The notes under the pieces are model-generated. The model did no database searches and was not told the DNA's origin. It was given only the letters and a program-made list of their open reading frames with translations. Positions 1,311 through 29,224 of a stretch of DNA of 64,000 bases are shown here, in pieces; the stretch's first letter is position 1; each line of letters starts with the position of its first letter. Made by a program: the position numbers and the translations under genes. Origin of the DNA: Escherichia phage vB-Eco-KMB43; the sequence record OR525698.1; one strand, given 5' to 3'.

Positions 1311-1339
1311 AGTATAGGGGATCGCGAGATCCCCGTCAA
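1311..1339 (-). promoter_or_regulatory. sigma70-type early promoter cassette
   Basis: Minus strand: TTGACG-17-TATACT. The spacer is the palindrome GGGGATCTCGCGATCCCC. A conserved leader runs to AGGAGAATCAAATATG. Confidence 0.75.
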
Positions 1340-1357
1340 GCATTTATTTTAAAAATC

Positions 1358-1897
1358 TCAAAGTATTCTTTCTAGCCATTCGCGACCAGTCATATGAGTA
1401 CCCGCAATCATAAAATTATGGTCTGGCGAGGACCGAAACATATCTAAAATAAACTTCCGACATTCCTCATAGTCATCACGTTTAAGATAGACCACGTTCT
1501 CGCCAGTGCCAATAACTCCTTTACGATAGCCATGTTCTTTACGCGTAGACCATTGCACAGTATCCTTTTTAACTCGAATCACGATTGGTTCCCAATATCC
1601 AGCACATCCAGCATGACCACACGAACAAGTAAGGAAGTATTGACCCTTTGCTTTGTTCTCATCCCATCCAACATTAATCGGATAACATTCATGAAACAAT
1701 GCTAAAACATCATGTGTCTCGTCAATATCTTTATCGTCAATTCGTGCAGTAAACACCCAAACAGGGATCTTATTACCTATTGGTTCATAATCATCGCCCC
1801 ACTCGTCATAAATAGTTTCTAAGGTCATATCAATATTGATTGATTTTGCCGCGTCAATATGTCGTTGTGCTTTACGTTTACGGTTTAATGATTTCAT
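1358..1897 (-). CDS. hypothetical Cys-rich protein (179 aa)
   Basis: Long ORF. ATG 1897 lies after GAGGTGA. Contains a CSCGHAGCAGYW motif. No family recognised. Confidence 0.7.
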   Translation of the reverse strand: MKSLNRKRKAQRHIDAAKSINIDMTLETIYDEWGDDYEPIGNKIPVWVFTARIDDKDIDETHDVLALFHECYPINVGWDENKAKGQYFLTCSCGHAGCAGYWEPIVIRVKKDTVQWSTRKEHGYRKGVIGTGENVVYLKRDDYEECRKFILDMFRSSPDHNFMIAGTHMTGREWLERIL

Positions 1898-1914
1898 AGT
1901 CACCTCACATTATT

Positions 1915-2454
1915 TCAAAGATCGCGATATTGTACATTATGAAAATGAGAACTTGCATTACCAATATTGTAGATAACAAATTCTTCATCCGGCGCTTGCG
2001 CTACAAATTGAGTATGAGCAACCGCCACAACCTTAAAAATACGATCCGTGATCTTGTGTTTAATTTCTGCCCCTACTTCCATAGGAACATATTCATTTGT
2101 TTCTGTTTCAGTCGCAAAACAGCCATCTTCTTCATAAGCACGAACAAATCGGTCGCAATCAGTACGCTTAACAAATTCAAGAGTATATAATTCTCGTGAA
2201 TTGTCGGTATAGACCAATACAGAATTATTATGATAGCGAATCACATACAGGTTATTATCATCGTCAATTACGCAAAAGCTACGGATTCCTTCGCCTTGAC
2301 TCCAGCAGATATTAACCACCGTTCCTCTAATAAAAAAACTTTCCTTTAAATTAAAACTAGCCAATGTGCTAGCGTGCATTTTAACAACAACGCCATCACC
2401 AATTTCCAGTTTACGAAGTTTAACTTCTTTGCTCAGTACACAAAACATCATCAT
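1915..2454 (-). CDS. hypothetical protein (179 aa)
   Basis: Long ORF directly downstream of promoter cassette 2484..2511. SD is GAGGATAAC. Confidence 0.7.
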   Translation of the reverse strand: MMMFCVLSKEVKLRKLEIGDGVVVKMHASTLASFNLKESFFIRGTVVNICWSQGEGIRSFCVIDDDNNLYVIRYHNNSVLVYTDNSRELYTLEFVKRTDCDRFVRAYEEDGCFATETETNEYVPMEVGAEIKHKITDRIFKVVAVAHTQFVAQAPDEEFVIYNIGNASSHFHNVQYRDL

Positions 2455-2483
2455 GTTATCCTCTCGTTGTTTTCGATGTGAGC

Positions 2484-2511
2484 ATTATACATTAGCTAAT
2501 CAGGTTGTCAA
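2484..2511 (-). promoter_or_regulatory. sigma70-type early promoter cassette
   Basis: TTGACA-16-TATAAT, immediately downstream of terminator 2521..2549. Confidence 0.8.
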
Positions 2512-2520
2512 CACCCCAAA

Positions 2521-2549
2521 ACGAAAAAGCCGACCCTTTCGGATCGGCT
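2521..2549 (-). terminator. intrinsic terminator after nrdD
   Basis: Minus strand: GCCGATCC-GAAA-GGGTCGGC (8-bp stem, GNRA loop) followed by TTTTTCGTTTT. Confidence 0.85.
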
Positions 2550-2554
2550 GAAAA

Positions 2555-4417
2555 TTACATGTGCTTAACGCGGTTTACCATCTCGGAGTGTTTCCCGTGG
2601 TTAAATGGACGCAGATCAACAGATCCAAGATATCCACTAACGCGACGGATAACATTCATCTTTTCCAGATTGTCATTGCCGCAATCAGGGCAAACAAAAC
2701 CAGACTCGGTCGCTCTCATTTCCTTATTAGATCCGCATACATGACATACATCAGAAGGAGTATTAACACCGAAGTAGTGCAATTTATCCATTGCATAGTC
2801 TACTACAGTTTCAAGACCTTTCAGGTTGTTTTTCATGTCTGGGAACTCAACATAAGAGATCATGCCACCGGACGCCAGCCAGTGATAATCTTTCTCAAAG
2901 TCGATTTTCTCAAACGGTGTGACTTTCCGGTCTACGTCAAGGTGGAATGAGTTGGTGTACCAGTCTTTATCGGTAGCACCCTTAACAATACCAAATTGCT
3001 CTCGGTCCAGTCGATTAAATCGATAGCAAAGGCTCTCGGCTGGAGTACCGTAAAGACTAAACCCAAGTCCGGTTTCGTCCTTCCATTTTTCAGTATAATG
3101 ACGCAAGATCTTAAGAATATGTTTACCGTATCGCTGCGCATCTTCCGAATCAAACGGATGAACACCAAACAGGACGCTCAATACCTCATGTAAACCAATA
3201 TATCCAAGAGAGATACTAGCGCGACCATCTTTCAACACTTCCAAAATTTCATCGTTTTGATGAATACGGAAAAACGCACCTTCGGTATACAGTACAGGAG
3301 CAACATTGGCTTTAGCACCTTTTAAAGCGTCTACGCGACTCATGAGCGCATCAAAGCAAATAGGCATACGATTAGCTAGCTCTTGTTCGAATAGCTCAAT
3401 TCTGCGCATTACAGACGCTTTACCAGCACGACGCGCGGCAATAAGGGCAATACGCGGAAGATTCAGAGTCACAACACCTAAGTTATTACGTCCGTCTAAT
3501 ACTTCCTCGCCTTTCTCATTATGCCACACACCCAGGAAGCTACGACAACCCATCGGGCTAACCGGAACACTAGATCCGGTGATACTACGGTTATTCTTCG
3601 CAGAGATATAATCAGGGTAAAGACGCTTACTAGAACATTCCAATGCAAGTTGCTTAATGTCGTAGTTCGGATCTTCCGGTTTAAGGTTTAATCCTTCTTC
3701 TAAGAACATCACCAGCTTAGGAAACACCGGAGTGATACCATCTTTACCTAAACCTTTAGTTCGAACGTTCAGGATCGCTTTCTGAATCAGTTTTTCTTCC
3801 CAGCTAGTCCCCATACCAAATGTTAAAGTCACAAAAGGTGTTTGACCGTTGGTGGAGAACAAAGTGTTGATTTCATATTCCAACGCTTGATACCCGTCTA
3901 GCGTTTCTTTTTCTGTCTTCTCTTGTGCATAGAGAGTATCCGCTTTGATTCCGTAGGTTTCGGCATCAGCAAGGTGTTTATGATATGTTTTCTCAACGTA
4001 TGGCGCTAAAACCTGATCGATGTTTGCAATTGTGGTCCCGCCATATTGATGACTTGCCACCTGTGCGATAATTTGAGCGGTTACAGCACAAGCAACGCCG
4101 ATTGATTTCGGACTTTCGATTTGTGCGCTACCCAATTTAAAACCATTCTCTAACATGTCTTTGAGGTTAACAAGACAGCAGTTAGTAAACGGCATAGCGG
4201 GTGCATAATCCATATCATGATAATGAATGTCACCGTCTACATGCGCTTTATAGATGTGCTCAGGTAACACGGTTTTAGCAATCTGTTTAGACACAGCACC
4301 AGCAATCAGATCTCGACGTGTCGGGAATGTTCGCGCGTCTTTGTTCGCGTTCTCTTTGCTTACTTCGTTTTCTTTACCCGTTGCGATCTCTGTAATGTCT
4401 TTGATTAGTTTTTCCAT
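2555..4417 (-). CDS. nrdD: anaerobic ribonucleoside-triphosphate reductase, class III
   Basis: 620 aa. C-terminal Zn-ribbon (CHVCG...CPDCG) and glycyl-radical motif RRVSGYLG. Uninterrupted, with no intron. Confidence 0.95.
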   Translation of the reverse strand: MEKLIKDITEIATGKENEVSKENANKDARTFPTRRDLIAGAVSKQIAKTVLPEHIYKAHVDGDIHYHDMDYAPAMPFTNCCLVNLKDMLENGFKLGSAQIESPKSIGVACAVTAQIIAQVASHQYGGTTIANIDQVLAPYVEKTYHKHLADAETYGIKADTLYAQEKTEKETLDGYQALEYEINTLFSTNGQTPFVTLTFGMGTSWEEKLIQKAILNVRTKGLGKDGITPVFPKLVMFLEEGLNLKPEDPNYDIKQLALECSSKRLYPDYISAKNNRSITGSSVPVSPMGCRSFLGVWHNEKGEEVLDGRNNLGVVTLNLPRIALIAARRAGKASVMRRIELFEQELANRMPICFDALMSRVDALKGAKANVAPVLYTEGAFFRIHQNDEILEVLKDGRASISLGYIGLHEVLSVLFGVHPFDSEDAQRYGKHILKILRHYTEKWKDETGLGFSLYGTPAESLCYRFNRLDREQFGIVKGATDKDWYTNSFHLDVDRKVTPFEKIDFEKDYHWLASGGMISYVEFPDMKNNLKGLETVVDYAMDKLHYFGVNTPSDVCHVCGSNKEMRATESGFVCPDCGNDNLEKMNVIRRVSGYLGSVDLRPFNHGKHSEMVNRVKHM

Positions 4418-4429
4418 TGTATCACCTAT

Positions 4430-4453
4430 GAAAAAGCGGGATTTCTCCCGCTC
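4430..4453 (-). terminator. hairpin / terminator between ORF 4462..4956 and nrdD
   Basis: AGCGGGA-GAAA-TCCCGCT followed by TTTTC. The nrdD SD (AGGTGA) starts 3 nt later and no promoter intervenes. Confidence 0.6.
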
Positions 4454-4461
4454 GTTGATAG

Positions 4462-4956
4462 TTATTTTACCAGTTCTGCTAATTCTTTTTCCGCCGCTTC
4501 CAGTTCAGCTTTCAGTTGTTTGATCTCTTGTCGCTTCTTATTAGCGGCTTCCTGCTTACTATTTCGGATAATCTGATCTAGATATGAATCCCACTCCTGA
4601 ATATTTTTGATAATGTAACCGTCAACATTAATTGGTCGGAGATTTAGTACAGCTTCCAGTTTAGTTGCAAAAACTTTAATTGCTGGTGTGAAGTATTCAT
4701 ACTCGTTATCTTCAAACCAATAGCCTAGACTTGCATTCTCAATACGAAGACGAAGTTCAAGATCAAGGTCTTTATCTTCGGTGTAAAGATCTTGCACATG
4801 CCCCATCGAACTAACAACAACTTTAAAACGAATTTTATCAACACCACCAAACACACCAGTAAGTATACCAGCAATTGAGCTATTAGCGCAAGATTGGTCG
4901 CTGAATGCGTCAAGGTTTTCTTTAGTTACAGTATACCAAACATCTTGTACCCACAT
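4462..4956 (-). CDS. hypothetical protein, member of the local FKV...NE.YF domain family with a C-terminal coiled coil
   Basis: Has its own promoter cassette. The FKVVVSSMGHV...DNEYEYF segment and the K/E-rich C-terminal helix resemble ORFs 5011..6189 and 6246..6812. Confidence 0.7.
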   Translation of the reverse strand: MWVQDVWYTVTKENLDAFSDQSCANSSIAGILTGVFGGVDKIRFKVVVSSMGHVQDLYTEDKDLDLELRLRIENASLGYWFEDNEYEYFTPAIKVFATKLEAVLNLRPINVDGYIIKNIQEWDSYLDQIIRNSKQEAANKKRQEIKQLKAELEAAEKELAELVK

Positions 4957-4986
4957 AATATAATCCTCTCGTTGTTAAGTGGGAGT

Positions 4987-5014
4987 ATTATAGCATACTC
5001 CCTTCGCATGTCAA
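4987..5014 (-). promoter_or_regulatory. sigma70-type early promoter cassette
   Basis: TTGACA-16-TATAAT. The -35 contains the TGA stop of ORF 5011..6189. Inverted repeat GGGAGTAT/ATACTCCC flanks the -10. Confidence 0.8.
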
Positions 5015-6189
5015 ACACTAACTTTTTTCTTTACTGCTTTCACCTTCTGGCGAATTGCTCGAATCTCTTCGATCTCTTTTTCAGTCTCTTTAACAATTTC
5101 TTTGCGATTCTGAATATCTGTATCTAGATTCTCATCGAGTTTAGGAAGCATGTCGATCAAGAACTTTTTAAGGTCTTTCAGGTTGCGAATAACAGTACCT
5201 TCACCCATTACCGCAACACCCACACCATCCGGCAGATCACCAAACAGCTTAACCAGTTCAGACAGATGATCATGATCTTCTAGTGCTTCTTCCGGTTCAG
5301 ATGGCAGTTCAACAAAGTTATAACGTTCATCATTGCTGATCAAGTGATACCAGCAAAGCCCGAAAGATTTCGGTGTATATTCTACACCATCAATTTCAAC
5401 CGCGTCAACACTTCCATAATCATCTACTTTAGTTACCTTAAATCCTTGTCCCAGCTTTTGAACAATTTCAACAACATGACTTGATACAGTTTCAGCGGTA
5501 AACCAATATGGCAAATTATGCTGATTTGGCTTGTAGCGTTCACCTACTTTAAATCTCTGACCATCCGCTTGCATAGCATGAAATTGTTGTTGCGTGATTT
5601 CCGCGAAGTATTCAAATTCGCTACCGTCAAACAAGCAATTCCATTGATCACAAAAACGATCTGCCTTAACAGTTTCACCTTTCGCGGTGATCATGGTAGC
5701 TGATCCGTGCAATTCTTCTTCAACTAAAAAGCCATATTCGACAAAATCAACAAGTTTCATAGCTTCTTTGTGATCTGGATCATGCTCTCCCCAGAATCGC
5801 TTAAATTCTTGCAAACCTTCTGGGGTAAACGAATAACATTTACCTTTTTCAAAGTAAGTCGGCATTGCATCCTCTTTCTTGTTCATCGCTTCGTATGCCT
5901 CTTTTGAGATACGTTTAAAGTATTTGCGCTCATTGTTCATAATCATAGTAGCCCAATAATCCACAATATCATTAGCGGAATAAACTACATCTCCAGCTTC
6001 AATAGTAATAACATGACCGTGGTCATCTTTTTCTAATACTTTAAAGCCCTTTTCTACGATTTCAGCAACCCGAATATGACCACGGCGCGAAGCATCGGTC
6101 AGAATAATTGAATAGCGAGAAAAGTCTAGAAACTCATCTTTACCGCCTTCACGGAATGCATAGTAATGACCTTCAAAGAATTTAGCCAT
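5011..6189 (-). CDS. hypothetical protein with three tandem copies of a ~90-aa domain plus a coiled-coil tail
   Basis: Internal repeats: GFKVLEKDDHGHV..NERKYFKRI, GFLVEEELHG..SEFEYFAEI, GFKVTKVDDYGSV..NDERYNFVEL. Has its own promoter cassette. Confidence 0.75.
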   Translation of the reverse strand: MAKFFEGHYYAFREGGKDEFLDFSRYSIILTDASRRGHIRVAEIVEKGFKVLEKDDHGHVITIEAGDVVYSANDIVDYWATMIMNNERKYFKRISKEAYEAMNKKEDAMPTYFEKGKCYSFTPEGLQEFKRFWGEHDPDHKEAMKLVDFVEYGFLVEEELHGSATMITAKGETVKADRFCDQWNCLFDGSEFEYFAEITQQQFHAMQADGQRFKVGERYKPNQHNLPYWFTAETVSSHVVEIVQKLGQGFKVTKVDDYGSVDAVEIDGVEYTPKSFGLCWYHLISNDERYNFVELPSEPEEALEDHDHLSELVKLFGDLPDGVGVAVMGEGTVIRNLKDLKKFLIDMLPKLDENLDTDIQNRKEIVKETEKEIEEIRAIRQKVKAVKKKVSV

Positions 6190-6220
6190 AATATAATCCT
6201 CTCGTTGTTTAGATGGGAGT

Positions 6221-6249
6221 ATCTTACTACTCCCGTTTCATCATGTCAA
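6221..6249 (-). promoter_or_regulatory. sigma70-type early promoter cassette
   Basis: TTGACA-17-TAAGAT. The -35 contains the TGA stop of ORF 6246..6812. Inverted repeat GGGAGTA/TACTCCC flanks the -10. Confidence 0.75.
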
Positions 6250-6812
6250 GCGTTAAATGACTTTTGGATCTCTTTCAGTTCAGCTACTTTATCGGCGCTA
6301 TATTTTGCTTGATGTTCCATGCGCTTAAGCTCACCTTTGATATAGGTTTCTAGCTTAGGTTTATTCTCAATCAGAAAATCTTTCAAGTCATCGGCATTTT
6401 TAAAGTATAGCTGATTGTCAAAGCTAAAATCTTCCAGCGTCAATGATACCAAAGAAGACTTCGCAAACAAGTTAATCAGACCTTCCAGAGATTCTTCTTT
6501 CTTAACTGGTTTCATTTCTTCAAACTGCTTTTTAGTGATGCGTTTAAAGTATTTGCGCTCGTTTGCAGCAATCAGAACAGATGCACCTTCATACCCATGA
6601 GTTTCTACCAGATACACACGCCCCATCGCATCAACAGTGAGAACTTTAAAGCCGTTACAAAGCACGTCATACAAGAACTTATTATGTTGCGGACATCGTT
6701 TGATAAATTCTGCGGCTGTTTCTGCACTACGGAAAGTGTAATAACGACCTCGTTCAAAAACAGCATCATTTGAAGACTTAGCCGGATACAATTTATACGT
6801 TTTCTGTACCAT
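6246..6812 (-). CDS. hypothetical protein, one copy of the same domain plus a coiled-coil tail
   Basis: GFKVLTVDAMGRV..NERKYFKRITKKQFEEM. Start moved to ATG 6812 after GAGGATTATATT. Confidence 0.7.
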   Translation of the reverse strand: MVQKTYKLYPAKSSNDAVFERGRYYTFRSAETAAEFIKRCPQHNKFLYDVLCNGFKVLTVDAMGRVYLVETHGYEGASVLIAANERKYFKRITKKQFEEMKPVKKEESLEGLINLFAKSSLVSLTLEDFSFDNQLYFKNADDLKDFLIENKPKLETYIKGELKRMEHQAKYSADKVAELKEIQKSFNA

Positions 6813-6838
6813 AATATAATCCTCTATCATTTCACTAA

Positions 6839-7099
6839 TTAAACAGCACGGAACAGAATGCGCTCACACGGAAGCAGCATAAATTCCCAACGCGGGTCAA
6901 AGTCTTTAGCGGTGTATGTTTTCCCATCAACCGCTATTTCACTTACATAACCAACAGGTGACACTTTAAGAACAGTAAACCCATTCTTGATGACTTCGTA
7001 GGTATCTTTCACCCCTTCGTATTCATCATCTAAGAAGTCTTTATGTGCTTGCTCAGATTTAAAAACATAGGCCACACCGGATTTAAACATCTTACGCAT
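6839..7099 (-). CDS. hypothetical protein, single copy of the same domain (86 aa)
   Basis: GFTVLKVSPVGYVSEIAVDG. The track ORF 6839..7159 reads through the promoter. ATG 7099 follows AAGGAGAATCAACA. Confidence 0.65.
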   Translation of the reverse strand: MRKMFKSGVAYVFKSEQAHKDFLDDEYEGVKDTYEVIKNGFTVLKVSPVGYVSEIAVDGKTYTAKDFDPRWEFMLLPCERILFRAV

Positions 7100-7130
7100 T
7101 GTTGATTCTCCTTCTTGATTAGATGGGAGT

Positions 7131-7159
7131 ATTTTACTACTCCCATTTCTTATTGTCAA
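7131..7159 (-). promoter_or_regulatory. sigma70-type early promoter cassette
   Basis: TTGACA-17-TAAAAT. Inverted repeat TGGGAGTA/TACTCCCA flanks the -10. Confidence 0.75.
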
Positions 7160-7162
7160 CTA

Positions 7163-7636
7163 CTATCTTAATCTTTGTATGAATTGTTTCTTATACTTCT
7201 TCGTGATTTCTTCTCGTGTATCAGCGTCACAGTAATCGAAACCTTCTGCGTCCATAATATCAACCATCTCCGCGCGTGTCAAGCGTGAAAATCGTTTTAC
7301 TTTATCAACGGCATATTGAGGATGTAAATGATTGTTGGTGTAGTCTCCTTTGATGTAATTAACATAGTTTGTAGCCCAAACAACGAAATCAGCACCTAAA
7401 GCACCAACACCAAACCGTTTAAAGTCTCCGGTCAACGATCCTTCTAGGCGGTTGCAACACGAATGAAGCAATCCCCTTACTCGGCCTTGCCCTTTCCCAT
7501 CTAGATCATGATCATGGTCAAGATGGTTTTTGCTCATATCCTCAAAAAGTGGCAATTGACAAAGGGGGCAAATGCCCCCCTGTTTTTCGAATAGTTCTTG
7601 TTTGTACTCTTTAGCACTCTTAGCAGTCAGTAACAT
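7163..7636 (-). CDS. 49: recombination endonuclease VII (Holliday junction resolvase)
   Basis: MLLT.K...C.LC...HLDHDH...G..RGLL...CN..EG matches recalled T4 gp49 in sequence and length (157 aa). Confidence 0.9.
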   Translation of the reverse strand: MLLTAKSAKEYKQELFEKQGGICPLCQLPLFEDMSKNHLDHDHDLDGKGQGRVRGLLHSCCNRLEGSLTGDFKRFGVGALGADFVVWATNYVNYIKGDYTNNHLHPQYAVDKVKRFSRLTRAEMVDIMDAEGFDYCDADTREEITKKYKKQFIQRLR

Positions 7637-7660
7637 AAATTCACCCTCCAAAGAAGGTAT

Positions 7661-7942: not shown

Positions 7943-7943
7943 G

Positions 7944-21929: not shown

Positions 21930-21939
21930 AATTCACCTC

Positions 21940-22065
21940 TTATAGATCAGGACGTTCGTCATTAATTTTACCAACCAAAACACCATAGAGTTTATCAGGT
22001 TGGACTTTACGATTCTTATTGATTTTAGCACGGAATCGACGAGCTACGCTATCTTTATTTTTCAT
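21940..22065 (-). CDS. small basic peptide (41 aa), not in the ORF track
   Basis: ATG 22065 overlaps the upstream TAA (TAATG). Sequence MKNKDSVARRFRAKINKNRKVQPDKLYGVLVGKINDERPDL. Its stop is followed by AAGAGGTGAATT and the grcA-like ATG. Confidence 0.4.
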   Translation of the reverse strand: MKNKDSVARRFRAKINKNRKVQPDKLYGVLVGKINDERPDL

Positions 22066-22556: not shown

Positions 22557-22618
22557 GGTAAAGTCTCCAGTGAACGGGGAGAGATCCTTAGATTGTCTCC
22601 CCGTTGATGGTTAATATT

Positions 22619-23194: not shown

Positions 23195-23209
23195 TTTATA
23201 ATCCTCACA

Positions 23210-23231
23210 AAGCCAGCGATTAAGCTGGCTT
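23210..23231 (-). terminator. hairpin after the endolysin gene (weak U-run)
   Basis: AAGCCAGC-TTAATC-GCTGGCTT followed by TGTGAGG. It may be an RNA-stability hairpin rather than a terminator. Confidence 0.45.
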
Positions 23232-23239
23232 GATTTTAG

Positions 23240-23629
23240 TTATACCGGGTCTGGATATACCTTTTTATCGAGTTCCATATGCGGTCCGTCTTTAAAAGTA
23301 ACCCAATCAACACCGCAGATAACAGGAACACCCAATTCTCGACCAGCTTGTTTAAATGCATCCGCGATCATGCGGTAGTATTTCATGTTCCATGTATCCT
23401 TATCTTTCGGATACGCTACAACGTCAACCGCGAAACCGTGAAGATGACGAGATTTCATAGTCTTAGATTTACCTTCCGCAACATATTTCTTTTGCGTTTC
23501 TAGACTACGTACACCTTCCGTAATACCAAAATCGACCGGAGTCAGTTCTAACGCACGATGAACGACTTTTACCAGGTCAGGATGCACACCAACAAGCCGA
23601 TCTTTGCTTCTTTGAGATAATTTAAACAT
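23240..23629 (-). CDS. endolysin, L-alanyl-D-glutamate peptidase (T5 Lys / peptidase M15 type)
   Basis: V.P.L.KV..RALELTP.DF.I.EG.R......KSRH..G.A.D...Y...GPHMELD aligns with recalled T5 endolysin. This type is known for RB49 and RB43. Confidence 0.9.
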   Translation of the reverse strand: MFKLSQRSKDRLVGVHPDLVKVVHRALELTPVDFGITEGVRSLETQKKYVAEGKSKTMKSRHLHGFAVDVVAYPKDKDTWNMKYYRMIADAFKQAGRELGVPVICGVDWVTFKDGPHMELDKKVYPDPV

Positions 23630-23657
23630 TATTCACCCCCTTTGTGAGTGATAATAT

Positions 23658-23849
23658 TTAGATTCCGGCGATCCTGCATAGAGTTCTTGTATTAGCACCA
23701 ATAAGGATAGCATTAACGACAACCATTCCCCAATCAACCCACGGATTATTATAAATGCTAAATCCGTTTGCTAGGCCAAATACAAGCATTCCGGTACACA
23801 TACTCAGAGCAATAATCAACATCACGGTAAAACCAAATGCAAATCTCAT
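23658..23849 (-). CDS. small membrane protein (63 aa, 2 TM)
   Basis: Hydrophobic helices. Immediately upstream of the endolysin. Confidence 0.55.
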   Translation of the reverse strand: MRFAFGFTVMLIIALSMCTGMLVFGLANGFSIYNNPWVDWGMVVVNAILIGANTRTLCRIAGI

Positions 23850-23850
23850 A

Positions 23851-24066
23851 TTATTTTCCTTTTCTCTGTTTACGTTTATAAAAGTAATACATTACCTCAT
23901 CGCGTCCGGTGATCCAACATGCTAGGGCGGTAAACAGGTTTACAATTCCCAACACACCTACGGATGCGGCGCTGTCAACAGACATAGGAACAGTAAAGGC
24001 CATAGCTAACATAGCAACGCCACAAATGACATTAAGCACCATTATAATAAGACCGAAGAAAACCAT
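23851..24066 (-). CDS. small membrane protein (71 aa) with a basic C-tail
   Basis: Start moved to ATG 24066 after GGAGGATTGACA. Two TM helices and a KRKQRKGK tail. Confidence 0.55.
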   Translation of the reverse strand: MVFFGLIIMVLNVICGVAMLAMAFTVPMSVDSAASVGVLGIVNLFTALACWITGRDEVMYYFYKRKQRKGK

Positions 24067-24068
24067 TG

Positions 24069-24248
24069 TCAATCCTCCGACACAAGAAAACCAACAATCA
24101 CGCCAGTGATAAGACATGATGCGCCGCTAATCAGACAACCCGCACCAAGTGATTCCCACCAGATCAGAGAAGCGACAATAACACAGAATCCCCACACTAC
24201 CGCAATCACAACATAGGCAAGGGTCGCCCAAAACATATATTTGTTCAT
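24069..24248 (-). CDS. small membrane protein (59 aa)
   Basis: ATGA overlap at 24248. Two TM helices. Confidence 0.55.
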   Translation of the reverse strand: MNKYMFWATLAYVVIAVVWGFCVIVASLIWWESLGAGCLISGASCLITGVIVGFLVSED

Positions 24249-24433
24249 AATAAATCCCATTCACCAAACAAATAAGAAAAAAGCCATATCAACAGAAACG
24301 AGGCAATTGATCCGACAAGCAAAATGATATTAGAGAATCCGCCGTCTATCCAGGCGACAAAACAGAATACACCAGTATAGAAGCATAAACCCATTACAAA
24401 ACATACTATAAGCAACCATAGACAAAACGCCAT
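24245..24433 (-). CDS. small membrane protein (62 aa)
   Basis: SD GGAGGGCTTTCT. Two TM helices. Confidence 0.55.
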   Translation of the reverse strand: MAFCLWLLIVCFVMGLCFYTGVFCFVAWIDGGFSNIILLVGSIASFLLIWLFSYLFGEWDLL

Positions 24434-24494
24434 AGAAAGCCCTCCAGTGAGCTAATTTAGTGCGGGTAGTACATTACCCTACCCGTATTGTTAA

Positions 24495-24653
24495 TCATCG
24501 CAGAGCTTCTTCTAGCGCGATCCCAAACCATCCACAAACAACGCCCATACAGACAGCTACAAGAAGATTCATTCTCTCTTTAGGGATCATTGCAATCATA
24601 ACAACAACCATACAGAAAGCCATTACCATTGAAGTTAACATTTGTTCAACCAT
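24495..24653 (-). CDS. small membrane protein (52 aa), not in the ORF track
   Basis: MVEQMLTSMVMAFCMVVVMIAMIPKERMNLLVAVCMGVVCGWFGIALEEALR. ATG lies 3 nt after the upstream stop (TGATAAATG). Confidence 0.45.
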   Translation of the reverse strand: MVEQMLTSMVMAFCMVVVMIAMIPKERMNLLVAVCMGVVCGWFGIALEEALR

Positions 24654-24656
24654 TTA

Positions 24657-24971
24657 TCACACCTTTAAAGTCATAGACGCATAAACATTAATGCCAGGCC
24701 AGTTAGGATCGCAATTATACTCAACATCCCACAAATAAAGCGGTTTAGATGTATCAGCCAAGTTTTTAAAATCTTCTACCCACATTTCAAGGCTATATGA
24801 TGGATAAACTAGGCTATCATATCCGCCGTAACGTTGGCCTACTGGTCGGTCAGTAAAAACTACCTCAAGATCCGGTAATTCTTTTTCAAGGATAACCGCC
24901 AGCGCATAAATCAGACGGTCTTCCTTGTTACGCTGCCGAAGGACCGTTGTCAGTTGGTTTTTCTGGTTCAC
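24657..24971 (-). CDS. hypothetical protein (~104 aa)
   Basis: The ORF track starts at 24995. GTG 24971 follows GGAGGTGCTTGCTA. The start is uncertain and the gene overlaps the upstream gene. Confidence 0.55.
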   Translation of the reverse strand: MNQKNQLTTVLRQRNKEDRLIYALAVILEKELPDLEVVFTDRPVGQRYGGYDSLVYPSYSLEMWVEDFKNLADTSKPLYLWDVEYNCDPNWPGINVYASMTLKV

Positions 24972-25248
24972 TAGCAAGCACCTCCACATTTTCACAGAAT
25001 GAAATTTTCACAGACACAATTTTACCATAAGTGAAGAATGAATATACATTATCGAGATATTCAACGTCACCTACAATCACATCAAACTGCGGATCAGCAA
25101 CCACCGCAACATATTCTACCAGTTCATCAAGAGAATGCAACTTAATTTCATCAATTCGGCTGTATTTGGTCGCATCTTTAATTTTAAAACCAAGTTCTTT
25201 CAGCTTGTCAATCAGAATTTCACGCGGAGTTTCAAACAGTTTGCTCAT
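24928..25248 (-). CDS. hypothetical protein (106 aa)
   Basis: ORF with SD GAGGATTATATT. Confidence 0.6.
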   Translation of the reverse strand: MSKLFETPREILIDKLKELGFKIKDATKYSRIDEIKLHSLDELVEYVAVVADPQFDVIVGDVEYLDNVYSFFTYGKIVSVKISFCENVEVLASEPEKPTDNGPSAA

Positions 25249-25269
25249 AATATAATCCTCACATTAAAT

Positions 25270-25467
25270 CTAAAATTTGTTAACGACGAATTGCATAATT
25301 AGACTAATCACAAACATTGCAAACCAAGTATAAATGCAACAGATAAAAGCTACATACAATTCAATCTGGTCAGAGAATACACCGGGTAAAAGCATTAGCA
25401 AAATAACAACAGTAAAGACGCTAGCGATACCCGCAACAAAACCAATATCATTTTTACTAATCGTCAT
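25270..25467 (-). CDS. small membrane protein (65 aa)
   Basis: ATG 25467 overlaps the upstream TGA. Two TM helices. Confidence 0.55.
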   Translation of the reverse strand: MTISKNDIGFVAGIASVFTVVILLMLLPGVFSDQIELYVAFICCIYTWFAMFVISLIMQFVVNKF

Positions 25468-25664
25468 CAAGTCACCGTTTTGTAAAGAAACACAATAAAA
25501 TCCCAGACAAAAAAGACAGTGAAAATAATCATCGTCAAGACAATAAACACTGTCAGATTTTCATCGTTAGTTAATTCATGACCGTCCATCCATATAATCA
25601 CCAGATAAAACATCGAAATCAAGGAGGCGAATACCAAATTATAAAACTCTTCCTTTAATGACAT
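25467..25664 (-). CDS. small membrane protein (65 aa)
   Basis: Two TM helices. Tightly packed against its neighbours. Confidence 0.55.
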   Translation of the reverse strand: MSLKEEFYNLVFASLISMFYLVIIWMDGHELTNDENLTVFIVLTMIIFTVFFVWDFIVFLYKTVT

Positions 25665-25665
25665 A

Positions 25666-25848
25666 CTACACCTCGTCGCGGCTTAAGTCAACAGCAATTG
25701 CATACAGCATAATTAATATGCTAGCAGATCCGAGAATCAATGCACCCTCACATTTTGAAACTCGCTCATCAAAATGTAACATTATCCATCCGAGGATGTT
25801 AAAGGCGCAGACCGCGCCTATGTTCGCTAACCAATTAATCTTTTTCAT
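25666..25848 (-). CDS. small membrane protein (60 aa)
   Basis: Two TM helices. Confidence 0.55.
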   Translation of the reverse strand: MKKINWLANIGAVCAFNILGWIMLHFDERVSKCEGALILGSASILIMLYAIAVDLSRDEV

Positions 25849-25856
25849 AATATACC

Positions 25857-26183
25857 TTAGAAAGAAACAGTTTTCAAGAAATCCAGATTTTTAGTACCGA
25901 AAACAGAAAAGTAGTGTTCTCCTTTTTCGGTTTTAGAGAAAGCGATTGTCTTCTCTACATGGTGACGGAAGCCAGACAGACGATCACCCAGGTCAAGGCG
26001 GCAAGCGTAAGTAGTGCCGTTTTCGAAAGTAACCTCGATTTGAGTTTTGTCATATTCGCTTTCATAGGCTTTTGCTGCTGCGTCCTGTGCTTTACGCTCG
26101 AAGTCTTCGAAGTGGAATACTTCGTTTGCGTTAGCGAATACAGAAGATTCAGAGAAGATAACTTTAACAGATACTGGTTTCAT
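25857..26183 (-). CDS. hypothetical protein (108 aa)
   Basis: First gene behind promoter cassette 26226..26254. Confidence 0.65.
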   Translation of the reverse strand: MKPVSVKVIFSESSVFANANEVFHFEDFERKAQDAAAKAYESEYDKTQIEVTFENGTTYACRLDLGDRLSGFRHHVEKTIAFSKTEKGEHYFSVFGTKNLDFLKTVSF

Positions 26184-26203
26184 TTTGATACTCCTTAGTA
26201 GTT

Positions 26204-26236
26204 CGTGTTTCGTTTCGATGGGTGTATTATGCTATA
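26204..26236 (-). repeat. 33-bp perfect direct repeat, copy 1 (cassette leader plus -10)
   Basis: cgtgtttcgtttcgatgggtgtattatgctata is identical to 27182..27214. Confidence 0.9.
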
Positions 26237-26254
26237 CACCCTCTCTCGTGTCAA
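26226..26254 (-). promoter_or_regulatory. sigma70-type early promoter cassette
   Basis: TTGACA-17-CATAAT. Leader ACACCCATCGAAACGAAACACG. Confidence 0.8.
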
Positions 26255-26262
26255 CAACTTTT

Positions 26263-26451
26263 TTAGTCTTTTTTCATAATTTCTAGAGCTGTTTCTACAG
26301 CACCTTTCCAACCCTCCCACATAATGGACATAGTAAGGAAGTTAAAGCACCCGCAGGAATCAACCTTTTTAGAGATAAACCATTCTACAAACGCTTCGCT
26401 CATACCATGCTCTTTAGCGGATTCGCGTAATTGTTCAATTTGGTCTTCCAT
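26263..26451 (-). CDS. hypothetical protein (62 aa)
   Basis: ORF whose stop sits right before the -35 of the next cassette. Confidence 0.55.
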   Translation of the reverse strand: MEDQIEQLRESAKEHGMSEAFVEWFISKKVDSCGCFNFLTMSIMWEGWKGAVETALEIMKKD

Positions 26452-26473
26452 AGTATCACCTCAACACTTAACG

Positions 26474-26668
26474 TTATTCAAACTCAAACGGTCTATTCAA
26501 CCTATTGTAAAAGTACATATAACAAGCAAAATTATGCTTTGGCTGTACCGTATCAGATAGACACGCTTTTACAGCCTCGCGGTCCGATGGGTCTACACCC
26601 TCAGCTTTAAGTAATGCTAAAATCTGGTTATAGCGTACTCTTAGTTGTACTAATGGTTTATCCCCCAT
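26474..26668 (-). CDS. hypothetical protein (64 aa)
   Basis: ORF in the same operon. Confidence 0.55.
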   Translation of the reverse strand: MGDKPLVQLRVRYNQILALLKAEGVDPSDREAVKACLSDTVQPKHNFACYMYFYNRLNRPFEFE

Positions 26669-26677
26669 ATTACCCCC

Positions 26678-26905
26678 TTATAGTTGATCAGCAATGTATG
26701 CGGTGCATTTGCGGAGTTTAGCCATAGCACCACCTTTCATGTCGCTTGCGCCTACAATGTTCATGATCTCTAAGCGATCAGCCGGATTCAGTCTAGTAGC
26801 CCAGATCTGGTTAGCCAGTTCCATTTTACCCATCTGCGGTTCCATCTCAAACATTTCACGCTCAAAGTCGATAATTTCTTTTGCTGCGTCTTTAAAGTTA
26901 ATCAT
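26678..26905 (-). CDS. hypothetical protein (75 aa)
   Basis: First gene behind promoter cassette 26935..26963. Confidence 0.6.
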   Translation of the reverse strand: MINFKDAAKEIIDFEREMFEMEPQMGKMELANQIWATRLNPADRLEIMNIVGASDMKGGAMAKLRKCTAYIADQL

Positions 26906-26934
26906 TTTGGTCCTCCCGTTTCGTTGATGGTTGT

Positions 26935-26963
26935 ATTGTAGGGGAGTTATCCTCCCATGTCAA
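26935..26963 (-). promoter_or_regulatory. sigma70-type early promoter cassette
   Basis: TTGACA-17-TACAAT. Spacer hairpin GGGAG-GATAA-CTCCC. Confidence 0.7.
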
Positions 26964-26971
26964 CACTTTTA

Positions 26972-27157
26972 TCAGAAATATGCAATATAGTTTGCCAGTC
27001 CTACAGAGTCATCATTCGGCATTGCTTTTACCGCCAGTTCAAACCCTGCTTCAACTTTCTGTTTAGCGGATTCTTCGTTATAACCCCAGATGACCAGAAT
27101 AGCTACTACGTTTTCTTTGCTTACTGCTTTCAGTGCTTTAGTGATGCGACGTGCCAT
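26972..27157 (-). CDS. hypothetical protein (61 aa)
   Basis: Single gene behind promoter cassette 27204..27232. Confidence 0.6.
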   Translation of the reverse strand: MARRITKALKAVSKENVVAILVIWGYNEESAKQKVEAGFELAVKAMPNDDSVGLANYIAYF

Positions 27158-27181
27158 AATTTGATTCTCCGTTTAAGAAAG

Positions 27182-27214
27182 CGTGTTTCGTTTCGATGGG
27201 TGTATTATGCTATA
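27182..27214 (-). repeat. 33-bp perfect direct repeat, copy 2
   Basis: Identical to 26204..26236, 978 bp away. Confidence 0.9.
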
Positions 27215-27232
27215 GGCGTGATCTGGTGTCAA
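27204..27232 (-). promoter_or_regulatory. sigma70-type early promoter cassette
   Basis: TTGACA-17-CATAAT, directly after terminator 27259..27286. The leader is identical over 33 nt to cassette 26226..26254. Confidence 0.8.
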
Positions 27233-27258
27233 CAACTTTTTTAAAAAAATTTTAGGCA

Positions 27259-27286
27259 ATAAAAAAGCCACTCCGAAGAGTGGCTT
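27259..27286 (-). terminator. intrinsic terminator with a C(UUCG)G tetraloop
   Basis: GCCACTC-TTCG-GAGTGGC followed by TTTTTTATT. Confidence 0.85.
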
Positions 27287-27430
27287 ATAGGGAAGGTAGC
27301 GAATCTTCCTTGTCTCCAACCTGCTAGCGGCCTAGCAAGTGAATGCTTTAGCGTACCGGATCACCCCATACGCTGTAATAAATGCGGCTAGGTGACGTCC
27401 AAATCATTCTAACCGCGCTGTCTTTAGTTC
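27259..27430 (-). ncRNA. candidate late-expressed structured small RNA (~170 nt)
   Basis: TATAAATA (27436..27443, minus strand) lies upstream. Four consecutive hairpins follow and the region ends in a C(UUCG)G intrinsic terminator plus U-run. There is no convincing ORF or SD. Confidence 0.35.
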
Positions 27431-27434
27431 ACTA

Positions 27435-27653
27435 TTATTTATATCGCTTTCTCTCGCGACGTTTTTGATCTTCTTCCTTGATAGAGTTAAACGCATCAAA
27501 AAGACACATGACACTGATAATGAACATAACCGTATTTTCTACGATATCCCACGGCTTCGCATCAGTACAGATCCCCCAAACGGTAAGAAATGCAAATAGT
27601 GCAGAAGAGATCACAAGCATGATACTTGCTAAGATATAAAAAGTCATTTTCAT
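27435..27653 (-). CDS. small membrane protein (72 aa) with a basic tail
   Basis: Two TM helices and a QKRRERKRYK tail. ATGA overlap with the upstream gene. Confidence 0.55.
   Translation of the reverse strand: MKMTFYILASIMLVISSALFAFLTVWGICTDAKPWDIVENTVMFIISVMCLFDAFNSIKEEDQKRRERKRYK
27436..27443 (-). promoter_or_regulatory. T4-type late promoter motif TATAAATA
   Basis: Exact TATAAATA on the minus strand. Overlaps the stop codon of ORF 27435..27653 and faces the ORF-free structured region. Confidence 0.5.
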
Positions 27654-27832
27654 GGTTTTACCTCAATTCTTCGATATTCATCACACATCCACGCAGTAAG
27701 CAAGAATCCCAGCACATAAGCAACAAAATACGTTAATGCTTCTTCTGGTTCGGTGCTATGCGCCATCATCAGACCAGCGAGAAAGGTCTTAACAATTACA
27801 TTTAAAATAATTAGCCACGCAAATAATTTCAT
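27650..27832 (-). CDS. small membrane protein (60 aa)
   Basis: ATGA overlap at 27832. Two TM helices. Confidence 0.55.
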   Translation of the reverse strand: MKLFAWLIILNVIVKTFLAGLMMAHSTEPEEALTYFVAYVLGFLLTAWMCDEYRRIEVKP

Positions 27833-28053
27833 CGTTTGCCCCATTTCGGTCGAGTCTTTTCAAACTTATACATCCCGTAACAATCTCGAATCATCCACGT
27901 AACAAGAGCACCAGTCAACACAGACAATACACAGAAGAAGTAAAACGGTCCGGTTGCATTATCAACATGAGCAAGCCAGGTAAAGAAAACACATGCTAAG
28001 AATGTGAAGAACATCATAAAACACAAGAAAGCAAAATATTTTATGCTACTCAT
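27829..28053 (-). CDS. small membrane protein (74 aa)
   Basis: ATG 28053 follows GGTGGCGCT. Two TM helices. Confidence 0.55.
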   Translation of the reverse strand: MSSIKYFAFLCFMMFFTFLACVFFTWLAHVDNATGPFYFFCVLSVLTGALVTWMIRDCYGMYKFEKTRPKWGKR

Positions 28054-28160
28054 AGCGCCACCATACAACAGATCATAAGAAAACCCAACGCAATAAGAAT
28101 TGCATCAAATTTAGTGAACTCCGGTCCACATATCAACATCATTCGTTCCTGTTCATTCAT
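28050..28160 (-). CDS. micro membrane protein (36 aa), not in the ORF track
   Basis: MNEQERMMLICGPEFTKFDAILIALGFLMICCMVAL. ATGA overlaps at both ends (28157..28160 and 28050..28053). Confidence 0.4.
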   Translation of the reverse strand: MNEQERMMLICGPEFTKFDAILIALGFLMICCMVAL

Positions 28161-28354
28161 AGATCACAGAGCCATCTTAAAGCACCACATAAAGCGAGCA
28201 GAATACTAGGTATAAACGAGATCAAAACAAGTTTGCAAAAATCATCTAAGGTAATACCGGAATAGATACCAACTGTAACAACACCGATCATCAGACACAG
28301 AAAGAAAACAAATGCAATCAGAAACAAAGTATTGCTAAACAGTTTAGTGATCAT
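28157..28354 (-). CDS. small membrane protein (65 aa; 80 aa if ATG 28399 is used)
   Basis: Two TM helices. ATG 28354 follows GGGGTG, which gives an 11-nt rather than a 56-nt overlap with the upstream ORF. Confidence 0.5.
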   Translation of the reverse strand: MITKLFSNTLFLIAFVFFLCLMIGVVTVGIYSGITLDDFCKLVLISFIPSILLALCGALRWLCDL

Positions 28355-28547
28355 TAGACACCCCACGACGATCAATTTCAAAAACTTTTTTATCATCAAC
28401 GAAGCATGTCACAACTGCCTCGTTGACTTCCGCAAATTGTTGTGTTACCCACTTAAGGTCAGAGCGAAACAATGTTCTATTAATAACAAATGTTTTACCT
28501 TTCTTATCCATACCCATAAATTTTGCTTTAACCATATCCAATTCCAT
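28344..28547 (-). CDS. hypothetical protein (67 aa)
   Basis: ORF with SD AAGGTGATAAT. Confidence 0.55.
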   Translation of the reverse strand: MELDMVKAKFMGMDKKGKTFVINRTLFRSDLKWVTQQFAEVNEAVVTCFVDDKKVFEIDRRGVSNDH

Positions 28548-28556
28548 ATTATCACC

Positions 28557-28715
28557 TTATTTGCTAATCGCTAAACCCAATCCGAAGAGAGCACCCGATG
28601 CTACAGTATACCCGAAAGTTTCAAAGGCAGTAAAGATATCTAAGCCGCCAGCTAACAGAGTTGCAGTAAACAGAGTACCAGCTACGAACATAAAAGTTTT
28701 ACCGATAAATTTCAT
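28557..28715 (-). CDS. small membrane protein (52 aa), not in the ORF track
   Basis: MKFIGKTFMFVAGTLFTATLLAGGLDIFTAFETFGYTVASGALFGLGLAISK. ATG 28715 follows AAGGAGAATCAAA and sits behind cassette 28738..28766. Confidence 0.5.
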   Translation of the reverse strand: MKFIGKTFMFVAGTLFTATLLAGGLDIFTAFETFGYTVASGALFGLGLAISK

Positions 28716-28737
28716 TTTGATTCTCCTTTCGTTTGTT

Positions 28738-28766
28738 TGTGGGGGGTATCTTACTACCCCCGTTTC
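28738..28766 (-). promoter_or_regulatory. sigma70-type early promoter cassette
   Basis: TTGACA-17-TAAGAT. Inverted repeat GGGGGTA/TACCCCC flanks the -10. Confidence 0.75.
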
Positions 28767-28782
28767 ATGTTGTCAACTGTTT

Positions 28783-29157
28783 TTAAGAAAATTTTACTTC
28801 GTCTACAATGTCTTTCATGACATTGATTTCCATTCCGGTCAGAACACGTTGGAACATGTGCTGCACATACGCTTTCAGGTATTCATTTGATGGCTTGCTA
28901 TCGAAAGTCTTTTTAGTGTAGTAGTCATCACCGAAAGCTACTGTAATTACATTTTCGTCGTCGTTCCAAGCGATATAAGCAAATTTGCCGTTATCCCAGA
29001 AGCGAGCACTAATTGCTACTTTTGTTGAATCGAATCCTACTTCGCTGTGAGATTCAAGAACTACTTGCGTGCCAGTTTCTTTATGAATGTAGTAGCGGGA
29101 TACTAAGTCAAAGTTACGGGTGTAGTGACATTCGAATTTATCTTTAAACATCATCAT
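28783..29157 (-). CDS. hypothetical protein (124 aa)
   Basis: Single gene behind promoter cassette 29196..29224. Confidence 0.65.
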   Translation of the reverse strand: MMMFKDKFECHYTRNFDLVSRYYIHKETGTQVVLESHSEVGFDSTKVAISARFWDNGKFAYIAWNDDENVITVAFGDDYYTKKTFDSKPSNEYLKAYVQHMFQRVLTGMEINVMKDIVDEVKFS

Positions 29158-29195
29158 TTTTGATTCTCCTAAGTGTGTTTCGTTTCGATATGTGC

Positions 29196-29224
29196 ATTAT
29201 GCTATAGTCGTTTATGGTTGTCAA
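29196..29224 (-). promoter_or_regulatory. sigma70-type early promoter cassette
   Basis: TTGACA-17-CATAAT, directly after terminator 29231..29262. Confidence 0.8.

Follow-up and report, generated by a model that had tools for sequence, protein, structure and literature searches.

The 64-kb stretch of Escherichia phage vB-Eco-KMB43 analysed here (OR525698.1; hereafter the window) carries 18 copies of one promoter-leader cassette, which on sequence grounds are very probably promoter-early stem-loop (PeSL) elements, orthologous to the PeSLs of phages RB49 and Phi1 and sharing their promoter role. A PeSL is defined as a sigma70-consensus promoter preceded by AT-rich DNA, with a stem-loop that can occupy any of five positions and with a Shine-Dalgarno (SD) sequence followed by ATG; such elements measure ~100 bp, number 51-52 per genome and are concentrated in hyperplastic regions upstream of ORFans, and the commonest sites of the stem are the spacer and the -10 hexamer (PMC2839356). 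The first-pass annotation of this DNA had assigned the cassettes to the PeSLs of RB49/phi1 (Arbiol et al. 2010) and supposed the class to be already described; both statements hold, the loci being orthologous and the architecture being the published one. Since these are orthologs of published elements in the same genus, the finding is already known: it repeats RB49/Phi1 publications of 2002-2010 and is partly annotated in the GEC-3S record. Two points go slightly beyond the literature, namely a link to the phage endoribonuclease RegB, and the observation that the commonest stem class, placed around the -10 hexamer, has no U-tract and is not the class that the PeSL papers tested as a terminator.

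Megablast comparison of 12-kb and 25-kb pieces of the window with deposited phage genomes matched 63 records, five of them weak (60-80% identity) and the rest RB49-like T4-type coliphages. RB49, Phi1 and GEC-3S are each ~96% identical to the window, the best matches reach 96.5-97%, and none of the 63 records is an identical genome. Judged by these comparisons, the phage is a Krischvirus (RB49-like T4-type coliphage) and a new isolate of that genus. Five relatives (RB49, Phi1, GEC-3S, kvi and JSE) were compared in detail; a gene map was made by transferring RB49 genes by tblastn, and every gap between genes was then tabulated. The cassette region is an ORFan-rich early block on the minus strand, running from nrdG/nrdD through regB and dmd to 57B, and plus-strand baseplate genes come after it.

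All 18 copies announced by the first-pass annotation were extracted with the architecture it described (Table 1), and its coordinates stand for all but one of them: at 28738..28766 there is no TTGACA, the true site being 28748..28776, 10 nt away. The -35 hexamers (16 TTGACA, one TTGACG at 1339 and one TTGACT at 19423) and the spacers (16 nt in four copies, 17 nt in 14) are as had been claimed; the listed -10 hexamers are all present, but the list was incomplete, as TAAAAT, TAATAT, TACAAT and TATTAT also occur. The cassette is ~70-130 bp long and comprises, in order: (i) an A/T-rich, UP-like region, preceded in five copies by a canonical intrinsic terminator; (ii) a near-consensus host sigma70 promoter, TTGACA-N16/17-(T/C)AnnAT; (iii) a G-run/C-run stem-loop in the spacer (class A), around the -10 hexamer (class B), or in the form of the upstream terminator (class C); (iv) a conserved start region C-A-T-C, which lies ~7 nt (range 6-9 nt) past the -10 hexamer, so that the +1 position was placed at its A; (v) an A/C-rich, almost unstructured leader of 23-40 nt, AUCGAAAC(GAAACAC)...; and (vi) a standard ribosome-binding block, mostly GGAGAATCAAA, then ATG. 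The 30 nt upstream have a mean AT content of 0.71 vs 0.59 +/- 0.09 in random 30-mers, the lowest values (0.47-0.57) being found where the GC-rich stem of a terminator fills that space. A terminator scan confirmed all five of the upstream intrinsic terminators that had been claimed.

All 18 copies match at least 10 of the 12 consensus positions, and 13 match at least 11. Across the window, 24 TTGACA-N16-18-TATAAT sites match at least 11/12 (22 on the minus strand) vs 2.35 +/- 1.53, with a maximum of 7, in 100 dinucleotide shuffles. The first-pass annotation had proposed a check of the motif's frequency in coding and in shuffled sequence, and its expectation is borne out: near-consensus sites are ~10 times as frequent as in shuffles, and the cassettes lie in the non-coding fraction. 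In the block 124..29733, 32 minus-strand sites match at least 10/12, and 18 of them have their -10 hexamer in the 8.6% of the sequence that is non-coding (binomial P = 9e-12); 17 of these 18 are cassettes, and the other, at 25849..25877, overlaps the ribosome-binding region of ORF112c. Of the 23 intergenic gaps that measure 45 nt or more, 17 hold a cassette. A lenient promoter scan (9/12) gave weak enrichment only (75 vs 60; 71 vs 56), the signal residing in sites matching at least 11/12; the leader motif CATCGAAACGA alone, with up to two mismatches, was not enriched (29 vs 23) and is informative in context only. Furthermore, an nhmmer profile of the 18 cassettes recovered all of them (E 6e-16 to 1.4e-4), with no further match better than E = 2; because the profile drops to E >= 2 after these copies, the list is taken as complete for the window. 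An independent repeat finder returned the cassette as the dominant direct-repeat families D1-D7, some pairs of copies being 82-89% identical over 62-67 nt.

These results can be set against the reading that the copies are independent early promoters, alike through the sigma70 consensus alone, with no cassette, shared ancestry or exchange. The two hexamers do hold most of the invariant columns, ~10 more near-consensus sites lie in genes without a leader, and one of the two ribosome-binding blocks named in the first-pass annotation, GAGGATTATAT, proved generic, with eight of its 11 occurrences lacking a promoter and only three lying behind cassettes. However, the likeness extends beyond the hexamers, to rGTG before the -35 box, CATCGAAAC(GAAACAC) after the -10 hexamer and the other block, GGAGAATCAAA, which is cassette-specific; the identities between pairs and the profile search also speak for a common cassette. 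On the gene strand, GGAG[AT]AT[CT]AA lies behind these promoters only (11/11 in the window, 11/11 in RB49 30.5-76 kb and 12/12 in an independent Phi1 region, 34/34 in all), every copy has a stem-loop, and at the ORF078c site one entire cassette is exchanged for another. Independent promoters are therefore a highly improbable explanation.

Other sigma70 matches are present in the window. Six minus-strand matches at 11/12 lie in coding sequence on the sense strand (713-741, 7254-7282, 13808-13837, 18725-18753, 24044-24072 and 30074-30102), have no hairpin, leader or SD, and exceed shuffle expectation after removal of the cassettes; they could be internal promoters or chance matches. A perfect 12/12 match with a spacer of 18 nt lies on the minus strand at 51600-51629, with further 11/12 matches at 49474-49501 and 53755-53782. 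The genes mapped nearest to 51600-51629 (up to ~44.5 kb) are late plus-strand genes; if late genes extend to these sites, they could be early antisense transcription starts.

A positional ortholog of each cassette was found in all five relatives; the exception is the ORF078c site, where the four genomes carrying gene 38 (all but kvi) have a different cassette. The RB49 orthologs of 17 of the 18 -35 boxes figure in the 2006 list of 51 predicted early promoters, at a constant offset of 14-15 nt (PMC1524935 Additional File 3), and 16 of the 18 sites carry promoter, -10, -35 and terminator features in the GEC-3S GenBank record, where a promoter is annotated also for the vs.1 copy, which is not in the 2006 list. 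For the RB49 early promoters, predicted or mapped by Nolan et al. 2006 (PMC1524935) and by Desplats et al. 2002 as cited there, the consensus of the 2006 paper likewise allows T or C at -12 and is rich in C from -3 to -1 (here CATAAT and ...CCCA), but the sites are described as promoters only, with no stem-loop or cassette concept. Experiments on near-identical paralogs have shown that initiation is strong and sigma70-dependent and that a class A stem attenuates transcription (PMC2839356): in vivo, Phi1 PeSL206/205 gave ~13,000 Miller units as a promoter, and the stem-loop of Phi1 PeSL211/210 lowered lacZ like rrnB T1 (PMC2839356). Both are class A and nearly identical to the copy at 11761-11789, from which the PeSL206/205 core differs in the stem loop only. 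In brief, the cassettes share genus, loci and architecture with the RB49/Phi1 PeSLs, and spacer and -10 stems, commonest there, account for 12 of the 18 here; nothing essential differs, the window phage having a class A cassette at ORF078c where RB49 and Phi1 have gene 38 and a class C cassette. The PeSL and PmSL elements of T4/PST and KVP40/nt-1 (Comeau et al. 2014, PMC4122927) are likewise composite terminator/promoter cassettes that lie in hyperplastic regions and are associated with insertions and deletions (indels), but they have their own promoter consensus (TTTACW...TAYWAT or TTGYVH...TAWWAT) and stems (AGNA/TCNT or A3-4G3/C3T3-4) that are mostly upstream of the promoter (PMC4122927); they are analogs, not homologs, of the cassettes described here.

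Right after infection, unmodified host RNA polymerase would start at each cassette and transcribe the small early genes behind it, from one to about ten in number. All 18 copies lie in gaps before an SD and ATG: the 17 on the minus strand are in intergenic gaps directly 5' of those of RB49-orthologous genes, and the remaining copy is in the virion module. The downstream genes are unnamed hypothetical open reading frames (ORFs) in 16 of the 18 cases, the other two being frd.2 and vs.1. Seventeen copies head 17 units, but the earlier statement that they organise the whole early region is overstated, as the block has 77 minus-strand genes and RB49 has 51 elements genome-wide. At least seven ORF calls had been said to be over-extended; the mechanical list of longest ORFs shows just four downstream genes that overrun their own promoter, namely ORF053c (1343 vs 1268), ORF060c (7159 vs 7099), ORF070c (11775 vs 11718) and ORF095c (20269 vs 20209).

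A stem-loop is present in every copy: four in the spacer, eight over the -10 hexamer, which then lies largely in the loop, five as upstream terminators and one atypical (vs.1). The stem-loops inside the promoter, in twelve further copies, had been missed by the first-pass annotation. The class C terminators are canonical, with a T-run after the stem. Among the 12 internal (class A and B) stems, 10 have z scores of -2.98 to -4.60 against 200 shuffles and two are weak. The arms vary in sequence and in register to the -10 hexamer while complementarity is kept (GGGAGT/ACTCCC, GGGGGT/ACCCCC, GGGTGT/ACACCC), so that the recurring feature is the structure and not one sequence. Because the register of the class B stems to the -10 hexamer varies from copy to copy, the MAFFT alignment follows that hexamer and the 3' arm instead of the structure, and compensatory differences were described from the sequences directly; the stem of the ORF068c copy, for example, is kept in RB49, where changes in the 3' arm and loop swap the positions of G-U and A-U pairing.

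The stem of a cassette lies upstream of the cassette's own start and is thus contained only in RNA reading through from the preceding unit, which fits an insulator role: as inferred from its position, it would terminate or attenuate read-through transcription and so insulate the units from each other. For the class B stems we regard the chances of such a role as even. Several points weigh against it. The stems of 14354-14382 and 19395-19423 are no better than shuffles; class A and B stems have no U-tract (tails are, e.g., AUCGAAAC and AUCUAAAC) and so are not canonical intrinsic terminators; and the stem tested experimentally was of class A, not of class B (PMC2839356). Directly after the class A stem comes the -10 hexamer (UAUAAU or UAUACU), which may act as a weak U/A tail. 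The sense-strand tail of class B (AUCGAAAC) is U-poor, which makes canonical intrinsic termination doubtful, and these -10-spanning stems may be not terminators but RNA 3'-end or DNA-level elements.

If the stems of classes A and B acted mainly at the DNA level, they would be targets in hairpin or cruciform form, or would bind a regulatory or recombination protein, and the cassettes would be recombination hot spots or would permit the shut-off of early promoters. The stems do overlap the promoter core without U-tracts, and the original authors report that PeSL stems block sequencing polymerases on single-stranded DNA and speculate that GGGG...CCCC may be bound by a recombination protein (PMC2839356); the gene 38 exchange described below also took place at such a cassette. 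Yet the variation of arms and register with pairing kept points to structure more than to a protein site defined by its sequence, a class A stem on its own cut downstream lacZ like a strong terminator (PMC2839356), and most indels found here lie off the cassettes, which together make a DNA-level function unlikely. It is also rather unlikely that class B stems terminate antisense (plus-strand) transcription or protect the 3' ends of processed upstream mRNA. Plus-strand T-rich runs follow several class B stems, with 7121-7148 and 28742-28761 flagged by the terminator scan, and the sense tails are U-poor as noted; but the T-rich antisense tail is not universal (20241-20269 gives GATCATGT), plus-strand promoters were not identified in the block (of the 24 near-consensus sites of the window, 2 are on the plus strand), and the class B stem of RB49 frd.2 is a minus-strand terminator according to TransTerm.

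Rfam gave no match at the gathering threshold over the whole window, and in 27150-27500 only sub-threshold, terminator-driven matches. That interval includes a 177-nt, ORF-free, GC-rich gap on the minus strand (27258-27434) between the stop of ORF118c and the class C cassette of ORF117c. It contains several stems (-63.6 kcal/mol, z = -5.06 vs 200 shuffles), ends in the terminator 27265-27286, lies within a block of 97% identity common with RB49 and corresponds to no Rfam family or tRNA (no tRNAs were found); it is a candidate structured small RNA or 3' untranslated region.

Because the copies have ~60-100 bp in common, the cassettes would also serve as crossover points for the phage recombination system, so that the modules between them could be inserted, deleted or swapped. 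In RB49/Phi1, cassette exchange was shown by mini-circle PCR (PMC2839356), with crossovers mapped to the interval between the -10 hexamer and the SD (Arbiol et al., PMC2839356). In the window, the gene 38 module (909 bp in RB49; long-tail-fiber adhesin or assembly) is absent at 14054-14090, at the cassette 14060-14087, and tblastn found no gp38 homolog in the 64 kb. The interval between ORF080c and ORF078c holds gene 38, a terminator and a class C promoter in RB49, Phi1, GEC-3S and JSE, vs a single class A cassette in the window and kvi. Homology is lost at the ORF080c stop codon and comes back in the leader at CATACCAACTAAGGAGAATCAAA, between the -10 hexamer and the SD, i.e. in the same interval as the mini-circle crossovers; this junction without gene 38 is found in 12 of 58 relatives. 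In the replacement of ORF054c, homology between RB49 and the window ends at 1353, 14 nt upstream of the -35 box of the cassette 1311-1339.

Against a general shuffling role, ~12 indel or replacement events were counted relative to the five relatives, of which one (gene 38) is in a cassette and one (ORF054c) abuts one. Events off the cassettes include the HNH gene (7954-8775), ORF074c (12623-12830), the 191-aa ORF (22635-23278) and ORF111c (25265-25675), and two homing-endonuclease insertions of JSE are also off the cassettes; 2 to 3 of ~24 block boundaries coincide with cassettes. As the events are few, no enrichment of breakpoints is claimed, and the shuffling role is illustrated by the gene 38 case, without statistical demonstration.

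Movement of the cassettes by a dedicated transposase or integrase, as mobile elements resembling miniature inverted-repeat transposable elements or integron attC sites, is extremely improbable. The copies are repeated, ~100 bp long and intergenic, with inverted repeats inside, and the authors liken PeSLs to integron cassettes (PMC2839356); however, there are no terminal inverted repeats or target-site duplications around them, the authors identified in RB49/Phi1 neither an integrase nor a recombinase other than the usual T4-type machinery (PMC2839356), and the sole exchange seen is a homologous crossover inside the leader. The mobile-element reading was rejected for its lack of target-site duplications and because positions are stable and orthologous in five genomes. 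Lambdoid morons (Hendrix et al. 2000, via PMC2839356) are also self-contained units between genes, and 42351-43888 resembles one: here the only plus-strand PeSL heads an inserted unit, ORF140w-143w, which stops at the terminator 43867-43888. In morons, however, the regulatory sequences differ between units and are not considered to mediate exchange, whereas the PeSL is the conserved crossover site itself (PMC2839356).

Some of the variable genes were characterized further. A 251-aa ORF between nrdC and dam (7944-8699, minus strand) is a putative HNH homing endonuclease according to the GEC-3S annotation; it is absent from RB49, Phi1, kvi and JSE, and its boundaries have no cassette. The 191-aa ORF between vs.8 and ORF102c (22619-23194, minus strand) is present, among the five relatives, in JSE only (EpJSE_00105), and its flanks are short hairpins, not cassettes. 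In the region 124-6830, ORF051c, ORF057c and frd.2 appear to be paralogous, as probably is ORF059c; a single pVOG covers the first three in the kvi annotation, and the direct repeats D9 and D10 connect them. Divergence from RB49 is strong in ORF051c (66% amino-acid identity) and in ORF054c (55%).

The ribosome-binding block also resembles a RegB site. In T4, the site cut by RegB with ribosomal protein S1 is an 11-nt, single-stranded GGAGRAYARAA, which in most cases is the SD of an early gene (Durand et al. 2006, PMC1702504). The cassette block GGAGAATCAAA agrees with this consensus at 10 of 11 positions, the leader is unstructured and regB is present in the window (Table 1). With at most one mismatch, the consensus has 17 matches in the window vs 9.67 +/- 2.95 expected; ten are in cassettes and one is regB's own SD, whose GGAU site fits the RegB pattern and whose RB49 counterpart (GGAU) is reported to be cleaved in vivo (review, PMC3014915). 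Predicted leaders fold at 0 to -5.8 kcal/mol, and the mean unpaired probability of the 11-mer is mostly 0.55-0.9, values that depend on the inferred +1. The PeSL papers (PMC2839356, PMC4122927) do not mention RegB. We tentatively suggest that the cassette-specific GGAGAAUCAAA is a target of RegB acting with S1; cleavage there would switch off the first cistron post-transcriptionally. Three points make for caution: the cassette block has C at position 8, for which A is strongly favoured in the T4 consensus, the RegB of RB49 is a divergent RegB protein (PMC3014915), and published cleavage data were found for the RB49 regB SD only and not for the SD sites of cassettes. It is possible, at somewhat less than even chances, that each PeSL is a three-function module, with a sigma70 on-switch, a stem-loop insulator and an off-switch timed by a RegB cut in the SD, a reading that rests on the 34 of 34 block occurrences in three regions, all at the first cistron behind these promoters. 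On this reading RegB would cut the SDs next to the cassettes between GG and AG and would leave GAGGAUUAUAU uncut.

Table 1. Cassettes and associated features of the window. Stem z scores are from folding against 200 shuffles, E values from nhmmer; Pe: and Pl: are RB49 promoter identifiers (PMC1524935).
Feature	Outer range	-10 to -35 span	Strand	Stem-loop	Promoter, leader and ribosome-binding block	z	E	RB49 promoter	Remarks
PeSL of ORF053c ortholog	1266..1358	1311..1339	-	class A GGGGATC-tcgc-GATCCCC	TTGACG-17-TATACT, GGAGAATCAAAT ATG	-3.76	3e-10	Pe:33349	
PeSL of ORF055c	2449..2549	2484..2511	-	class C, terminator 2528-2549 + T-run	TTGACA-16-TATAAT, GAGAGGATAAC ATG			Pe:34495	promoter and terminator annotated in GEC-3S record
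PeSL of ORF057c	4954..5024	4987..5014	-	class B GGGAGTAT/ATACTCCC over -10	TTGACA-16-TATAAT; GAGGATTATATT ribosome-binding block	-3.77		Pe:36999	
PeSL of frd.2	6187..6260	6221..6249	-	class B GGGAGTA-gtaaga-TACTCCC	TTGACA-17-TAAGAT	-3.06		Pe:38234	RB49 ortholog of stem called terminator by TransTerm, minus strand (PMC1524935)
PeSL of ORF060c	7097..7173	7131..7159	-	class B ATGGGAGTA/TACTCCCAT	TTGACA-17-TAAAAT, GGAGAATCAAC	-4.36		Pe:39144	
PeSL of ORF068c	11048..11128	11085..11113	-	class B ATGCGGTTA/TAGCCGCAT	TTGACA-17-TATAAT	-3.60		Pe:42369	
PeSL of ORF070c	11716..11804	11761..11789	-	class A AGGGGATC-ggt-GATCCCCT	TTGACA-17-TATACT; long leader CATCAAAACGAAACAC, GGAGAATCAAA	-2.98		Pe:43045	
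PeSL of ORF078c	14027..14098	14060..14087	-	class A ACGGGGA-gaaa-TCCCCGT	TTGACA-16-TATAAT	-3.79			gene 38 polymorphism junction
PeSL of ORF080c	14310..14400	14354..14382	-	weak class B TGTGTTAT/ATAATACA	TTGACA-17-CATAAT, GGAGAATCAAAA	-1.34, not significant	3e-14	Pe:46502	
PeSL of ORF084c	15564..15664	15597..15625	-	class C, terminator 15639-15664	TTGACA-17-CATAAT, GGAGAATCAAAA		6e-16 (best)	Pe:47746	
Atypical copy of vs.1	19358..19441	19395..19423	-	long-range stem CTTTCTGGT...ATCAGAAAG	TTGACT-17-TATTAT; divergent leader, GGAGAAATTA	-1.72	1.4e-4 (weakest)		
PeSL of ORF095c	20207..20285	20241..20269	-	class B GGGGGTA/TACCCCC	TTGACA-17-TAATAT, GGAGTATTAAA	-3.42		Pe:52389	next gene downstream of ORF095c is regB
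PeSL of ORF113c	26181..26267	26226..26254	-	class B GGGTGTAT/ATACACCC	TTGACA-17-CATAAT; leader CATCGAAACGAAACAC, GGAGTATCAAA	-4.60		Pe:57746	reference copy of family D1
PeSL of ORF116c	26903..26981	26935..26963	-	class A, short stem GGGAG/CTCCC	TTGACA-17-TACAAT, GGAGGACCAAA	-1.95		Pe:58430	
PeSL of ORF117c	27155..27286	27204..27232	-	class C, terminator 27265-27286, A/T tract	TTGACA-17-CATAAT, long leader, GGAGAATCAAATT			Pe:58699	89% identical to 26204-26265 copy
PeSL of ORF124c	28713..28794	28748..28776	-	class B GGGGGTA/TACCCCC	TTGACA-17-TAAGAT	-3.05		Pe:60244	
PeSL of ORF125c	29155..29262	29196..29224	-	class C, terminator 29241-29262	TTGACA-17-CATAAT, GGAGAATCAAAA			Pe:60694	
Sole plus-strand PeSL	42351..42451	42392..42419	+	class C, terminator 42351-42378				Pe:73830	between late genes 8 and 9
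Half cassette of nrdC.11	21427..21512		-	class C-like terminator	TTTTCGTTTT block, without TTGACA				21448-21490 is a member of family D5
regB	19450-19869		-		SD GGATAATAAAA 19869-19879				98.6% amino-acid identity to RB49 RegB

Two further gaps deserve mention. The half cassette of nrdC.11 is annotated in GEC-3S with a terminator only, and JSE has a homing-endonuclease gene inserted exactly there; it represents a degenerate cassette or else a half that consists of the terminator alone. The gap 5' of rI (16583-16650, minus strand) has a T4-type late promoter motif, TATAAATA, in place of a cassette, and its RB49 ortholog is listed as late promoter Pl:48756 (PMC1524935).

In summary, the cassettes define 18 predicted early transcription units in this phage and fix the start codons of their first genes, which is of use for annotation, and they may explain the coming and going of modules such as the gene 38 adhesin cassette. 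If the RegB reading is true, each shuffled gene module would bring its own promoter, insulator and RegB off-switch; this would tie modular shuffling cassettes to the post-transcriptional shut-off of early genes. The RegB link and the -10 stems that have no U-tract could both be of interest to T4 specialists.

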